Below, piece by piece: positions 15,001 to 33,000 of a stretch of DNA of 64,000 nt (within the stretch, counting starts at the first letter, position 1; each line of letters opens with the position of its first letter). The position numbers are program-made. Location of the stretch: the NCBI RefSeq assembly GCF_002087085.1, contig NZ_MWQY01000001.1:186001-250000 (forward strand), written 5' to 3'.

Positions 15001-18000
15001 AATACCCGTATCCACAAGAACCCCGGTATCCCCCGCTTTGATCAGGTAGACATGAGCATGGCCGATGGAAACAGGGTGTATCTCCAGGAAAGGTAAAACG
15101 GGCTGCAAAAGGCACTTCTCCTCTGATTAATAGTGGTGTCCAAGAACGATGAAGAGTTCATAATTCTCTCCTCCCCAGTCGCCCTGGTCGATAACCGCCT
15201 TCAAATCGATCCCAAGGGATGTTCTAATATAATATCCCCTGGCGAAAAAGGGAAACCCGATGGCCTCAAGCCCCAGGCCCATCTTGAAGTGCTTATCCGG
15301 ATCAAAGGCCGTATCCTGCTCCTTGACCCATCCGGCGTCGAAGAAGACCGATCCCTGTCCTTCCACAAAATCAGGGATTGTGAAGGCCCTCATGGTCAGA
15401 TCGGTATTGATGAATCCCCCGTATTCCACAGCCTCACCCATCTTCAAATCCCGGATGCCCCGGATATAACTGGCGGCCTCTTCCTCGAACTCGCCGTCGA
15501 ACTCGGCAAAGCCGGCCACCCTGCCGGAAACCATGAAGGGCCAGAAAAGAATCCTGAAGGGAAGGGGATAGAATCCGGAGAGGGAAGCCCTGGCATCCCG
15601 GTTCCAATAGAGGTGCTGCAGGTTCCAGGTGTTGGTGTTCTCGATCCGCAGATCCACTCCCTTTCTGAAGTTCCCGATCCAGTCCACCTGGCCGGCCGTC
15701 AGGAGCTGTCCGTAGCCGATTCCGGGTCCCTCCTTCTCCCGGGATATGGGTTTATCGAACTTGTAATCGATCTCCGTATAGATCCCAGGGGTATAGATGA
15801 ACTGGCCGAAACCGGGAAGGAAGAGGCCGGTGGAGAAATCCTCCGCCAGTTCCAGCCGGGAGGTAATCCAGTTTTTGTCTATATCGGTGCTCTCGTAGTT
15901 GTAACTCTCCCTGAAGCTCAGGGTGGGGGTGTAGTCTTTTATCGGAAGATCGACGCCCACGGAGGTGTAGGACTCAAGATCATGCTCCCCCGCCGTGTAT
16001 TCCCAGTAGGCTGCCGTGTCCCAGTGCCACTGATGCTCCAGCCACTGGAAGGGCAGGATGAACTCCAGCTCCAGACGGTTGTTCGTATCCCCATCCTGGC
16101 GTTCCCAGGCGACATCCAGGGCGAAGCGTTCCAGGGTTCCGAAGAGATTCAGGTCGCGGTACTTGAGAGTCAGGGAAAAACCGTTGTTGGAATCGTACTC
16201 GGGGATAGGGAGCACGATTATGTTCCAGCTGTCCTCGGTGTAGATGTCCAGGCGTACCGGGTAGTGTCCGCCGGTCTTTTCTCCAACTGAGTATTCAATC
16301 CGGGAGCTCTCCTTCAGCTGCCTCAGGTTCAGAAGCAGCTGCCGCTGTTCGGCTATAAAATTCTGCAGCTCGTTTTCGCTCTGAAAGGAGATCCCTGTTC
16401 TCAGGTCGCCGAGCTCCTTCATGAGTGCACCTTTTCGGGTGATTCCATCAATATGATAGTTGATTTCCTCCACCATATATGGGCCTTCGGAACTCCCCGG
16501 TTCCGGGGCCTGGGCGAAAAGGCCGCTGGTAAGGATCAGCAGAAGGGCGATACCAGGATAGAGTCGGAAAGCGGTTCTCACGTACAGCTCCTTGAACAGT
16601 TCATGTCACTATCTATGTACCACAGGAAAGCAAAAAATCACAGTCCGCTCTTTTTTTCCATATTTTTGTATACGGTAAAATCAGGAGGATTTTTCGCCGG
16701 TTTACCCTGTATATGAAAGAAAAAATGCGTGCCGCTGTCTGCGGGGCGGGAATCGCTCTACTCTGTCTGCTTGTCGGCATGGAGATCCTCTCCTTTATCC
16801 GTGTAAAAAGCACTTTTATCGAACTCGGTGACCTTCTTCATACTCAGCATGGTGAACGCATGAAAGCTGTTCTGAACCTTGAAGAAGCTGTAAGCGCCGG
16901 TTTCGAGTGTACTGCGGAGGCCTTAAACGGGCTTGAGACGATAGAGCGTTCCCTGAGCGAATGCCTGTACGCCATGAACAGACAATTTTCTTCTGATCTT
17001 GCAGCTGTCCGCCGGGGACAGACAGTTCTGGCCGCAGCCCTGAAGGAGACAGACTTCAGGCCACAGGACCCCGGGGATGATCTGTTTGTGCAGTCCCTGT
17101 TCAGAAAGGGGCAGGATAGTTTCGCCGCAGAACGCTACGGAGAAGCCGCGGTCAGCATGTCGGAGGTGCTTTCTCTCGTGCCGGATTTCCATGAAGCGCG
17201 CCTGATCCGTGCCGCAGCGTTTTACCGGGAAAACCCTCTGGACTCCGGACGCCGGGAAGAGATCAGGGCCGATCTTGCTGTGGTCTTAACCAGGGAGCCT
17301 CATAACATCCTTGCCCTGGCGACCATGGGAAGTATTGCCCTTGAGGAACAGGACTGGCCGAGGGCGCGTCGGTACTGTCGGCACCTCATCGAAGTGGATG
17401 ACCGTAATATCGAGGCTGCCCGGATGTTCGTTGTCGCCTGCCGGGGGGAAGGCTGTATCGAGGAGGCTGAAGAAGAGATTACCCTGCTTTTACAGGATGA
17501 TCCGGACAATCCCCGCTACCTGCTGTACCGCGGTGAAGTGCTGGAGAATCAGAAGAAGTATGGCCAGGCCCTTGCTTCCTACGAGGCAGCCTGCAGGCGG
17601 GATCCTGCCTATTTTCCTGCGCTGCTCGGGGCAGCCCGCACGGCCGCAAATTCGGGAAACTACCCCCGTGCCAGGAAGCTTCTCAGCTCTCCTTCGGTTC
17701 CGAAGAATTATGAAACCTGCAGCCTGCTTGGGGAGTGCTGTATAAGGCTGGGCGAGACTGACGATGCAGTAAGCTGGTGGAAAAGGGCGGCTGCCTCCCT
17801 GACACTGAATACACCCGAGGATACAAAAAAGGCTGCGGATTGTTATCTGAAGATTGCCCGGTATTCTTCTGAAGCTGTCGACTTTGAAGGAGCCTTGAGG
17901 GCGGCGGCAAAGGGGCTTCGGCTTTCCGAAAATCCGGAGCTGCACCTGATCAGGGCAAAAGCCCTGCTGGAAACCGGTCGAAAGGACGAGGCACAGGAGG

Positions 18001-30000: not shown

Positions 30001-33000
30001 GGACCGGAACTGGGGGATCCGAACAGGGAGGGGTTTTCTATTGTAGAAGCGGCGAATTGGTATAGTTATGTGAGTAATAATCCGGTGATGTATGTTGATC
30101 CTACGGGATTAGAAAGCGCCGATGCAGCAAAACATTGGTACAACGCAATCTATGAACAGAATAAGGGATGGGAAATAACTCAAGATTATGGCTCTGCTGA
30201 AATGGCATCAATGGGATACTACCCAAAATCTAATGGGATTCATACAGGTGTCGATCTGAAGAAGACAGATGACTTAGGAAATAACGTAACAACAGGTACA
30301 CCTATTTTTCCGGATCGACCGGGTAAAATTAAATATATTAGAGATGAAGATCCAGGCTGTGGATTTGGTAAGTATGTCGGAATTGAAAGTGAGGATGGAT
30401 CTAATATTGAGGTACTTGCTCACTTAGATTCCATCGCTCCTGAAATTAGAGTAGGTTTCTACGTTGATAAAACGACTTCTGTGGGAACAGGTGGAAATAC
30501 TGGGAATTCAACAGGGCCACATTTACATAAACAAGTACAGCGAGATGTTCTAAAAAATGGAAGGACTCCTGGGATGGGTGCTGATGGAAATGTCGTTCAA
30601 AGTATGAGTAATTATGACAGAATTACTATTCCAGTATCAAAATCATGGTTTATGAGGTAACAAATGAAAGCATTGAAAATTTCTACCATTGTTGTATTTC
30701 TATTTTTAGCTACCGCATGTACTGAAGCCGATGAATCAAACCGTTCTACAGAAGTCGCAGAGCTAAAAGCAAAGGTTTACAATCTCCAGTCTGAAAATGA
30801 AAAACTGAAAGAGCGTAATGAAGAATTAACTACTGCCAATTCAACTCTAATCAAGGAGAAGAGTAGTCTATACAACCCTTTTTCTGGTAGTGGAAATCCT
30901 TTTAAATCCTTCCTGTTTTCCAACTCAACATCTTTTCCTTTTGGATATCTACAGGTTACAGGTTACTTCGAAGAAATTTTGATCTCAGATGTTGATAATG
31001 GATTAGAAGGACTTTGTCCGTTCTTTGTTGTTAATGAGATGGATTCAGATTTAAGTAACTACTTTTGGTCAATGATAAACAAGGGTAATACGTTCAATCG
31101 AAATATCGATGATCATATAGGTCTTTCTCTCAATCTTGATGATACACCAGAGATCATCATTGATGAACTGAAATCGAGTAGTAAGGAAATCACTGTCATC
31201 GGCTATCTAAGAGATTTAGAACTTGGTGGAAATATGACGTTGTGTAATCAGTATTTTACTCCCTTGGCAGTAATTTCCCCATAATAACCGTATTACACAG
31301 CATCCCGGAATTCTCCGGGATGCCTGTCCGAATTATTATATTATGCAGTACGTAATGAGATTATTTATTTATATGTACTACAGTAGTAGTTTATCTGCTT
31401 TTGGGGATAAATTGAACAGAAGTAACGATCGCAATTTTCTGTCGTCCATTCATCAGGCATGAAGAACCTTTGAGACTGAAAAAAAGCGCATGATCGAAAC
31501 CGTTGTTGGCTAATGGTTCTTCATTTCTCAGAAGCCAGTGCGAATCCTTTCATAAAGCTCTCTTGCATAATAAAGAATACAAAAAGGGGCGGAATCATGG
31601 TAATCATGACTCCTGCCATAATGACGCCCCAGTTATTCATCGCTTCGGCCTGGATAAGCATTTTGACGCCGATTTGAACTACGCGCATCTGCTTGGAGTT
31701 GGTAGCCATCAGCGGCCAGAGATACTGGTTCCATATATATATAAACTCGATTACCGTGAGGGCGCCAATTGAGTTTTTGGATAAGGGAATAAGGATTTGA
31801 AACAGGTATCGAAGGGGGTGACATCCATCCATCTTGGCAGCATCGAGAAGTTCAAGGGGAATGGTACGGAATCGCTGGACGAAGAGAAACGTCCCGGTTG
31901 CACTTGCCAGGAAGGGAAAAATAAGTCCGGCATATGTATCTATCCAGCCGAAACTGCTTACGATGCCGAAAAGAGCTACTATGCGTACCGGTATGGGCAG
32001 CAGCAGGGTTATGATTACTATGAAGAAGAGCAGGTTCTTTCCCTTGAAGTCGAAGTGGGTAAAAGCAAAGGCCGCCAACAGGCTGAATACTATTTTTCCA
32101 GCTGTCACGGCAGCTGCAATAATTGTTGAATTCAACATCATCCGGCCGAGGCTGACGCTTCGCCACGCGGCAGTGTAATTACTGAAATGTGCGGAAGGAA
32201 GAAGTTTAGGAGGTGAAGAGTAGACTTCCGCCGGTGTTTGCGTACTTATAACGAATGAAAGCACAACGGGAAGGCTGACTATCAGGATGCTGAGGATTAT
32301 CACAGCATGCAGGGCGATTGTCTGTAATCTTGTACGTTTCATGGCTTTTTCCTATTGATAGTAGACCTTACGGCCGGTTGTCTTGAACTGTATCAATGTA
32401 AGAAACACTACAAGGGTGAACAAAATAAGACTCTCAGCAGCGGCGTATCCGGTCTTCGCGTTGACAAAAAAGTCTCTGTATAACTGATAGATAAGAATAT
32501 TTGTTGAATTCGCCGGTCCACCTTCCGTGAGAACATCTATCAAACCGAAGGACTGGAAATATGAGTAGATAATATTCATTATCAGGAGAAAAAAGGTAGT
32601 AGGCGAGAGCATCGGAAAAGTAATGTAGATGAACCTCTTGACGGAGCCCGCCCCGTCGATCGCTGCCGACTCTATGGCTTCTTTCTGCACATTCTGCAGA
32701 CCTGCAAGATAAAATATAATGTTGTACCCGAGGTTTTTCCATGTGGCCGCCACTGTTACCACCAGAATCGCGAGGGTGCTGTTGGTAAGCCACTCCACAT
32801 TCATACCGGTGGCTACCTGGAAAAAATGGTTCATATACCCATTGGCAGGGTTAAAAAGGAATCTGAATATTGCTCCCGATATCGCCGGGGACAGGGCGTA
32901 GGGCCATATAAGCAGGGTACGGTAGATTTTAATCCCTTTTATATCCTGATTCAGCATGAGAGCGATCAGTAAACTGATGCTGAGGCCTGCGAGTACCACT

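Follow-up and report, generated by a model that had tools for sequence, protein, structure and literature searches.

In this study, we describe a set of four envelope proteins, A1 to A4, encoded directly ahead of a giant RHS toxin in spirochaetes, and relate it to type II secretion. On balance, we favour the reading that these proteins are a conserved envelope accessory set working with a GspD-type secretin, which brings the giant out of the periplasm and holds it at the cell surface; they would thus adapt the cargo to a secretin and retain it at the surface, rather than form a stand-alone exporter. We draw this reading from gene content, folds, a conserved gene order and a linkage to secretin and type II secretion system (T2SS) genes, and infer from these every functional step, including the giant's passage through the secretin.

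The operon and its toxin

Within the window (the whole 64,000-nt stretch of DNA that was analysed), positions 16713-31284 hold one tightly packed operon of six genes, all on the + strand, in which each gene either overlaps the next by 4-8 nt or ends 3 nt before it. The open reading frames span 16713-18092, 18064-19155, 19152-19934, 19931-20623, 20623-30660 and 30664-31284, with start codons placed inside the second (ATG 18085, A2) and the fifth (ATG 20653, the giant, giving 3335 aa). As the first-pass annotation had reported, the same genome carries a second locus of identical order (contig C33, 2398-12163), its giant interrupted by the contig end. Paralogues at the two loci are 28% (A1), 28% (A2), 36% (A3), 33% (A4) and 30% (giant) identical, and the two giants are the only SpvB matches in this genome.

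The giant (20653-30660, +) carries a Sec signal and, by its Pfam and NCBIfam matches, is a TcB-TcC-like fusion. In order, it comprises an N-terminal domain, SpvB (residues 235-393), an insert of ~1500 aa for which no sequence match was found in the PDB, FG-GAP, TcdB_toxin_midN (1959-2078), the RHS cocoon, an Rhs core (Rhs_assc_core, 3072-3163) and an M23 tip (Peptidase_M23, 3221-3307). The features expected of a TcB-TcC cocoon, namely SpvB, an FG-GAP beta-propeller, TcdB_toxin_midN and RHS repeats, all lie above their Pfam cut-offs, and the SpvB part matches the PDB chains of TcdB2-TccC3, YenB and SpvB at E-values of 1.7e-9 to 1.8e-5 (TcdB2/YenB ~5e-6). The Rhs core scores 75.5 bits (TIGR03696, cut-off 32.5), and DPTGL, an instance of the DPxGL cleavage motif, precedes the variable tip. 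This tip (30283-30543, +) is a peptidoglycan peptidase domain (PF01551, scoring 41.3 bits where the cut-off is 28.7), whose translation reads HTGVD (HxxxD) and HLH (HxH), which we take to be the metal-ligand motifs of M23 peptidases. Nothing in the giant's translation would anchor it to a membrane. The PF18276 (TcA_TcB_BD) profile found no match in the window's genome, nor in the control genomes, and, in agreement with the first-pass annotation, a search of the window's genome for a T6SS sheath gene found none.

Both the tip and the lipoprotein gene after it had been described previously and are seen here as well. The latter, A6 (30664-31284, +), starts 3 nt past the giant's stop and encodes a protein of 206 aa (lipobox LATAC) whose Pfam and NCBIfam matches are all weak and coiled-coil/Lpp-like. 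Tip and A6 share one segment, at 30-31 kb of the window, in which GC drops to 0.39. Because of its position after the giant, A6 is likely a periplasmic immunity protein. An alternative is that A1 to A4 themselves protect the envelope of the producing cell against the toxin, or control expression by sensing the envelope, a notion to which their operon position and their all being envelope proteins lend some colour. However, the module is conserved while toxin tips vary among loci, which argues against the immunity role once offered for it; a separate, tip-linked lipoprotein gene follows the giant in the low-GC cassette; and Pfam and NCBIfam revealed neither a DNA-binding nor a signalling domain in A1 to A4. 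We consider this alternative extremely improbable.

The accessory proteins

A1 (16713-18092, +) is a bitopic inner-membrane protein of 459 aa. As read from its translation and its Pfam matches to the TPR group (TPR_19, for one, with E 4e-24), a TM helix at the N-terminus is followed by a coiled-coil/helical core and by TPR repeats in the periplasm. Its core (approximately residues 127-202) is homologous to ~200-aa TM proteins that Treponema encodes upstream of A2 (98.1% probability by hhalign, E 1.1e-13, 76 columns), and such a protein precedes A2 in all 11 Treponemataceae loci checked for it.

A2 (18085-19155, +) is an outer-membrane (OM) protein of 356 aa with a signal peptide. Its AF2 model from a 124-row alignment (pLDDT 92.4) contains an alpha/beta domain (residues 31-160) followed by eight long strands (173-343), bearing out the two-part architecture of the first-pass annotation. 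Foldseek matches it to OmpA, OmpX, Ail and NspA (TMt 0.57-0.71) and also to TolB. By VIA-align, the barrel resembles NspA (Z 18.8, 150 aligned, rmsd 2.3) and OmpA and OprF (Z ~16), and the N-terminal half resembles TolB (Z 12.1 and 11.5), the CsgG complex 6lqh (Z 10.4) and PelC (Z 9.9 and 9.1). The C-terminal half is modelled as an OmpA-like 8-stranded OM barrel, at the level of fold and with no Pfam OMP_b-brl match, and the N-terminal half as an alpha/beta periplasmic domain of the CsgG/PelC/LpoB/TolB_N fold. Each half thus shares a fold with OmpA/OmpX/NspA barrels or CsgG/PelC/LpoB/TolB-N domains, but does not belong to those families by sequence, and the combination of the two was not found among the solved chains listed by Foldseek and VIA-align. 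Atlas neighbours of A2 carry LpoB, CsgG and TolB_N families, which we regard as leads only.

A3 (19152-19934, +), a lipoprotein of 260 aa, combines an FN3 domain with a second beta domain; its family profile matches the Fn3-like protein 3mpc in the PDB (E 7.5e-6), and the second domain bears an EPN(D/N)...DxDWY motif, presumably PPC-like. A4 (19931-20623, +), a lipoprotein of 230 aa whose gene always immediately precedes that of the giant, is modelled (AF2, pLDDT 78.7, core mostly >80) as a concanavalin-A-like beta-sandwich of lectin/GH16/CBM66 type, with Foldseek matches to CBM66, the galectin-8 N-CRD and GH16 at TMt 0.5-0.6. Lipoboxes are readable in the translations of A3, A4 and A6. A2, A3 and A4 have no family match in Pfam or NCBIfam, and A1 matches generic TPR models only, placing none of the four in a known Gsp family.

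Prediction of an A2-A3 complex gave a median score of 0.49, compared with 0.01 for the best of three controls, with runs sharing at least 54% of contacts and a partner pLDDT of at least 77. Of 157 solved complexes, 116 reach the mark for this score, as do 2 of 215 mismatches; scores of 0.60 or lower account for 18 of the 157 solved complexes among the passes and for both passing mismatches. This lends weak support to A2 and A3 binding each other. Comparison of two T. denticola-group genomes shows both A2 (dN/dS 0.23) and A3 (dN/dS 0.09) to be under purifying selection.

Distribution and linkage to type II secretion

Searching 1.84 billion sequences with a 7-row profile, we found 226 representatives of the A2 family at E<=1e-3, compared with 171 reported previously, a gap probably due to a different query, and A2 in 13 of 401 Spirochaetota genomes (previously 14). 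SpvB giants occur in 109 of the 401 genomes, and only 10 of these have A2; the module is therefore not general to spirochaete TcB/TcC-like giants, most of which do without it. In other lineages, different genes lie upstream of SpvB giants, such as a ~1470-aa gene (family f20) or a ~490-aa CarboxypepD_reg lipoprotein (f41). Where A2 is present, the order is strongly kept, as the first-pass annotation had claimed from fewer loci: an A3-type gene directly follows in 29/29 fetched loci, A4 comes after these in 24/24 loci of families f1, f2, f68 and f86, and the giant in all 23 loci in which the contig continues. The order A2-A3-A4 persists at a deeply diverged 22-37% identity.

A connection of the module to type II secretion, missed in the first-pass annotation, emerges from its surroundings. 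A GspD secretin gene shares the cluster in each of the 14 Treponemataceae loci that extend far enough upstream to be assessed. The module directly continues a run of gspD-gspE-gspF-gspG-pseudopilins-GspL-like-lipoprotein in eight of them; in one more, an inserted second giant comes after gspG, and five have solely an N-truncated secretin. In genus g8, a secretin is found in 11/11 A2-positive and 23/50 A2-negative genomes. In G460, from the window's own genus, a divergent T2SS operon lies 112 bp from A1. That the module forms the tail of a T2SS operon in Treponema suggests how such huge toxins exit the cell. A second, A2-less type of Treponema T2SS operon has a terminal RHS protein of ~2000 aa with DUF6531, so RHS cargo at the end of T2SS operons recurs independently.

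This linkage bears on the first-pass proposal of a dedicated envelope apparatus. What stands is a conserved, cargo-linked envelope set under purifying selection; what does not is a self-sufficient exporter that replaces known systems, that is, a trans-envelope conduit of the four proteins independent of a secretin. Such a conduit could draw on the topology of A1 (inner membrane) and A2 (outer membrane), which could bridge the periplasm, and on the window itself, where the module has no T2SS gene as a neighbour (GspD, GspE, GspF and GspG included), together with four more loci of its genus (L066-L069) without a T2SS gene in the 2.2 to ~10 kb fetched upstream of A1 per locus. Nevertheless, its sole OM component would be an 8-stranded barrel, a complete T2SS cluster is present elsewhere in this genome (contig C18, unlinked to the module), and the Treponemataceae clusters and G460 place secretin genes alongside. 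We hold a stand-alone exporter to be very unlikely.

A further explanation makes A1 to A4 pilotin- or scaffold-like assembly factors, which would promote the insertion or stability of the GspD multimer, above all of a truncated one, and take no part in cargo handling. Usual pilotins are TPR proteins or small OM lipoproteins, the module is embedded within T2SS operons, and PilW and T3SS chaperone models match A1 weakly, at the level of its TPRs. These matches fall far under the cut-offs (TIGR02521, 20.9 bits against 154), and A1 differs from a PilW/PilF-type TPR pilotin in having a TM helix and no lipobox. Moreover, T2SS operons already contain a TPR lipoprotein, separate from A1, beside the secretin; 23 of the 50 A2-negative g8 genomes have T2SS operons without the module; the giant always accompanies it (23/23 loci); and in G065 A4 is duplicated with the giant and not with the secretin. 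A pure assembly role therefore appears a slim prospect.

The T. denticola group (genus g2) presents a reduced form. Here a secretin of 400 aa, the only one found in the genome, is encoded between A3 and A4 and is present in 4/4 A2-positive and 0/5 A2-negative genomes. It corresponds to the C-terminal half of GspD (43-47% identity), being truncated at its N-terminus, and is under purifying selection (dN/dS 0.13). No GspE-family ATPase was found in the group's genomes (0/5 at E<=1e-10), so this secretin cannot act as a classical T2SS. It is conceivable, albeit doubtful, that the truncated GspD, the TM protein with the A1 core, A2, A3, A4 and a TPR lipoprotein constitute a new minimal secretin pathway, exporting or displaying a 3200-3300-aa RHS cocoon without pseudopilus or GspE ATPase. 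If so, A1 to A4 would be the cargo-handling core of an unrecognised secretion route that, outside this group, remains coupled to a full T2SS.

Proposed mechanism

In the secretin-coupled reading, the giant would cross the inner membrane via Sec by its own signal peptide and fold in the periplasm with the M23 tip shut inside the RHS cocoon, while A6 would protect the producer's peptidoglycan. A1, through its inner-membrane anchor and periplasmic helical/TPR part, and A2, through its OM barrel and periplasmic domain, may form a bridge or docking platform beside the secretin. A3, as an FN3-PPC stalk unit on A2, and A4, as a lectin-fold partner of the giant, may bring in the cargo and keep it tethered once it has passed.

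Several findings count against this mechanism. A folded BC cocoon is ~10 nm wide, and the secretin lumen is usually quoted as ~5.5-8 nm. The T2SS of the window's genome is unlinked and the four related loci lack a nearby T2SS gene in the fetched sequence, while 99 of the 109 genomes with SpvB giants manage without A2. G065 keeps two intact A4-giant units after losing the secretin, A2, A3 and the TM protein. In G104, A2 and A3 occur with other partners, with no T2SS gene in the fetched sequence: in one case A2 is paired with a 2175-aa lipoprotein of ~10 tandem A3 units, in another with an A3-type protein of 676 aa, after which comes a non-RHS protein of 4357 aa.

The G104 pairings, the lectin fold of A4, the weakly supported A2-A3 contact and the giant's want of an anchor would also suit a set with no role in crossing the OM, in which A2 as anchor, A3 as stalk and A4 as lectin-like clamp hold the exported giant, or other giant surface proteins, for contact-dependent delivery; an 8-stranded barrel cannot conduct a protein in any case. 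By itself, however, surface anchoring leaves unexplained why the module keeps a secretin after the loss of other T2SS genes, and why the inner-membrane-anchored A1 core is conserved across all lineages. We judge it rather unlikely as the whole explanation.

Comparison with known systems

A precedent for the secretin-coupled reading is Bcn-A, a 1398-aa RHS bacteriocin of Xanthomonas perforans that loses activity in a mutant of the T2SS secretin gene xpsD and requires accessory ORFs (PMC7259588). Bcn-A and the giant are both RHS/YD-barrel antibacterial toxins with a plug and beta-propeller and a terminal immunity gene, a candidate one in the case of the giant, and Bcn-A depends on XpsD and small accessory genes of its own locus; in contrast to A1 to A4, these accessory ORFs (124, 100 and 290 aa) come after the toxin gene, in a locus outside the T2SS operon, and the paper mentions neither an OM barrel nor a lipoprotein of FN3/PPC or lectin fold (PMC7259588). 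A different exit is reported for the Tc toxins of Yersinia entomophaga, namely release by T10SS-dependent lysis (PMC10847048).

With T2SSs and their pilotins or accessory lipoproteins, the module shares its place after gspD-E-F-G, the pseudopilins and a GspL-like gene in the eight Treponemataceae loci, and the TPR lipoproteins beside the secretin; it differs in that A1 to A4 fall outside T2SS families and the T. denticola group keeps just a truncated GspD. The giant resembles the Tc BC subcomplexes TcdB2-TccC3 and YenB-YenC in its SpvB, FG-GAP, TcdB_toxin_midN, RHS repeats, Rhs core with DPxGL and variable tip. Unlike them, it is made as one chain, carries a Sec signal peptide and has both an additional N-terminal domain and the ~1500-aa insert, and its tip is an antibacterial M23 peptidase paired with a lipoprotein immunity candidate.

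Results

The predicted operon at window 16713-31284 comprises six plus-strand genes whose neighbouring ends overlap by 4-8 nt or lie 3 nt apart. The first, A1, encodes a 459-aa protein with an N-terminal TM helix and TPR repeats. It is followed by A2 (356 aa, ATG at 18085), which has a signal peptide and matches no Pfam or NCBIfam family, and by A3 (260 aa) and A4 (230 aa), each with a lipobox and no family match. The fifth gene (ATG at 20653) encodes a giant of 3335 aa with a signal peptide, SpvB, FG-GAP and TcdB_toxin_midN matches, RHS repeats, an Rhs core that closes with DPTGL and, at the C-terminus, an M23 peptidase in which HTGVD and HLH are present; a ~1500-aa insert in this protein has no sequence match in the PDB. 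The sixth gene, A6, encodes a 206-aa lipoprotein. Over the toxin tip and A6, GC falls from ~0.56 to 0.39, as would be expected of an exchangeable toxin/immunity cassette. The six genes are flanked by ABC transporter parts, a helicase and other housekeeping genes, all on the opposite strand, and a promoter/terminator scan of the locus gave counts near those of shuffled sequence. On contig C33 lies a paralogous set whose giant is cut by the contig end; its small genes are 28-36% identical to those of the window and the giants 30%, as the first-pass annotation had observed for these two loci, and the two giants are the only SpvB matches in the genome. Upstream of A1 and divergent from it is a 484-aa signal-peptide ORF (15127-16581, minus strand) with no Pfam match, and ORFs of equal size occupy the same place in two related loci (G459 and G461).

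At E<=1e-3, a search of 1.84 billion proteins gave 226 representatives of the A2 family. Our genome search was made within Spirochaetota, atlas rows naming other phyla being leads only, and it placed the family in 13 of 401 sampled genomes, in 11 of the 61 genomes of genus g8 and in 12 of 41 relatives (G000 included), four of the five other genomes of the window's genus being among these 12. We compared 29 loci: two from this genome, five from the same genus, two from families f68 and f86, 15 from Treponemataceae (f2) and five from the distant genomes G104, G140 and G175. An A3-type gene directly follows A2 in all 29. A4 comes next in order in 24/24 loci of f1, f2, f68 and f86, with a secretin gene interposed in four, and follows A2-A3 in none of the five distant loci, two of whose contigs end there. 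An SpvB/RHS giant stands after A4 in every locus with a continuing contig (23/23; L025 ends at A4). At the other end of the module, an A1 homologue precedes A2 in 9/9 loci of f1, f68 and f86, and in Treponemataceae a TM protein of ~200 aa occupies A1's place in 11/11 loci examined, a count that leaves out L026, L028 and L029 and the L065 contig, which ends. By hhalign with alignments of 9 and 7 rows, this TM protein is homologous to the A1 core (98.1%, E 1.1e-13), a relation hardly visible with 4 rows (probability 13%). Together with the conserved order, this homology indicates that the four genes are a genuine module of long standing. Between two genomes of the Treponema denticola group, dN/dS is 0.23 for A2 and 0.09 for A3.

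Three irregular sequences were also encountered. In L066 (G459, 13583-15931), which is orthologous to the window locus, A4 and the giant are separated by ORFs of 109 and 443 aa. The frame of this giant opens at about residue 90 of the window's giant, and an insertion may have disrupted it. G030, a genome that is also SpvB-positive, has a short stretch resembling A2 that contains an in-frame TGA (C1:60467-60823) and may be a decayed locus. In P0011, a metagenome protein of 384 aa, residues 1-190 of an A2 homologue (75% identity) are fused to an RHS-repeat match; this may reflect a rearrangement or an assembly chimera.

Structurally, A2 is modelled (pLDDT 92.4, 124-row alignment) as an alpha/beta domain (31-160) and eight long strands (173-343). 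Structure comparison matched the barrel to NspA (Z 18.8 over 150 residues, rmsd 2.3) and to OmpA, OprF, OmpW and PagL (Z 15-16), and the N-terminal domain to the TolB N-domain (Z 12.1), the CsgG curli complex (Z 10.4) and PelC (Z 9.9); Foldseek was consistent with both. The A3 profile matches a solved Fn3-like protein (E 7.5e-6), and the second half of A3 has a conserved EPN(D/N)...DxDWY motif, which we take to be typical of PPC domains. A4 is modelled as a beta-sandwich (pLDDT 78.7), nearest to CBM66, galectin and GH16 jelly rolls (TMt 0.5-0.6).

In Treponemataceae the module is no free-standing unit. Eight loci (G260, G054, G314, G410 twice, G437, G443 and G456) have, on one strand, the order gspD, gspE, gspF, gspG, pseudopilin-like genes, GspL/PilN-like gene, lipoprotein, TM protein, A2, A3, A4 and giant, gspG of G314 being uncalled by the ORF filter. 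In G195 (C1:1478700-1530400; L045/L041/L024) a second giant, of 3422 aa, interrupts the T2SS operon after gspG, together with orphan RHS C-terminal fragments or cassettes and small genes. In G416 a 534-aa secretin without its N-terminal part stands immediately before the lipoprotein, and in four T. denticola-group genomes a 400-aa secretin lies between A3 and A4. This protein has its own signal peptide, corresponds to the C-terminal half of GspD (43-47% identity; dN/dS 0.13) and is the sole secretin match in those genomes; a GspE-family ATPase was found in 0/5 genomes tested of their genus (g2). Altogether, a secretin gene is in the cluster in 14 of 14 assessable Treponemataceae loci. Within g2, four of four A2-positive genomes have the secretin vs none of five A2-negative ones, and within g8, 11 of 11 vs 23 of the 50 others. 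In the window's genus, G460 has a T2SS operon divergent from A1 at 112 bp, and in the window's genome the T2SS cluster, itself full, is on contig C18, unlinked to the module. The lipoprotein preceding the TM protein in Treponema resembles neither A1 nor the genes at the end of this C18 cluster.

Discussion

The first-pass annotation had proposed that the four small genes are a dedicated trans-envelope export or display apparatus. It missed the link to type II secretion and, with secretin genes in all the assessable Treponemataceae clusters, a stand-alone exporter appears quite improbable. We think it somewhat probable, and the likeliest reading of these data, that A1-A4 are an accessory set coupled to the secretin and acting for the giant RHS toxin. 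The giant, its toxin shut inside the cocoon, would cross the inner membrane by Sec, and its outer-membrane step would depend on GspD; A1 and A2 would form a docking platform spanning the periplasm, and A3 and A4 would recruit the cargo and then tether it. That A1-A4 are instead assembly factors for the secretin is, in our estimation, quite improbable.

There is experimental precedent for a T2SS-dependent RHS toxin with accessory genes: in Xanthomonas perforans, mutation of the T2SS secretin abolishes the activity of the RHS bacteriocin Bcn-A, which also requires accessory ORFs (PMC7259588). A second type of T2SS operon in Treponema, without A2-A4 (L062, G407:C2:292000-311900; L063, G427:C23:55000-73000), begins with gspD-E-F and unknown genes. 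Next come two lipoproteins, first a CarboxypepD_reg one and then a clostripain-like C11 peptidase, and the operon closes with a DUF6531/RHS protein of ~2000 aa, so that T2SS operons have come to end in RHS cargo more than once.

Several observations weigh against coupling to the secretin. In most loci of the window's genus the module is not linked to T2SS, the T. denticola group is missing the GspE ATPase, and a folded cocoon is wider than the secretin channel. Further, G065 of the same group is a natural deletion variant that still has giants (C1:2016500-2050400; L043, L044): what remains is the TPR lipoprotein and two A4-giant units in tandem, and the place of the TM protein, A2, A3 and the secretin is taken by three unrelated ORFs (91, 276 and 288 aa), one of which has an NADase_transloc match. 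From this, A4 travels with the giant. Finally, some A2-A3 pairs have no RHS or T2SS genes beside them within the sequence fetched. In distant G104, the gene after one A2 homologue encodes a lipoprotein of 2175 aa that consists of about ten A3 (FN3+PPC-like) units in tandem (L031:3-6527, minus strand). Another A2 homologue there precedes an A3-type protein of 676 aa, behind which lies a protein of 4357 aa that has Laminin_G_3/Glucodextran_B matches but no RHS (L032:3869-18998, plus strand). The A2-A3 pair, having such other partners, is the more general core, and it looks like an anchor plus stalk. Complex prediction hints that the two may bind, the runs agreeing in at least 54% of contacts with partner pLDDT of at least 77; the score was 0.49 (best of three controls 0.01). 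Of 157 solved complexes, 116 reach the mark, as do 2 of 215 mismatches; among those that pass, only 18 of the complexes, and both mismatches, scored <=0.60. That the whole module is a surface anchor only is a minority reading to which we give some weight. A role in protection or regulation is disfavoured, since the module stays constant while toxin tips vary, and we hold it to be very improbable.

To our knowledge, little has been established about how very large Sec-dependent RHS/Tc-like toxins exit diderms that have neither T6SS nor TcA. The present loci suggest an answer that is concrete and can be tested, in which a secretin acts with four envelope proteins not yet characterised, and they give a proposed role to three unannotated protein families. 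A bolder reading of the T. denticola-group variant, as a secretin pathway without ATPase, is possible, and a variant of this kind, with its secretin truncated and no ATPase, would interest secretion biology at large. The locus family includes the TDE1558 locus of the oral pathogen T. denticola, whose giant is named only as a YD-repeat protein in the accessible text of the searchable literature (PMC3747143, PMC7586716); mention of TDE1556 is limited to an expression table (PMC3914990). The accessible part of a Tc-toxin survey does not mention spirochaetes (PMC7861908), and the searchable literature on combinations of Treponema, secretin, T2SS and Rhs held no description of the module or the secretin link.

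Also counting against coupling to the secretin, A2 is present in only 10 of the 109 genomes of the Spirochaetota sample with SpvB giants. Leptospira-type giants are ~2500 aa long, have no N-terminal domain and lie downstream of a gene of ~1470 aa. In family f20 (L049, L050) the conserved upstream gene encodes 1465-1470 aa and has no Pfam match. In f41 (L046, L047, L048, L051) a lipoprotein of 484-499 aa is conserved upstream; these proteins matched neither the A3 nor the A4 profile, and the two scanned (L046, L048) have a CarboxypepD_reg match. In the f41 giants the N-terminal domain of the window's giant is internal, at residues ~560-800.
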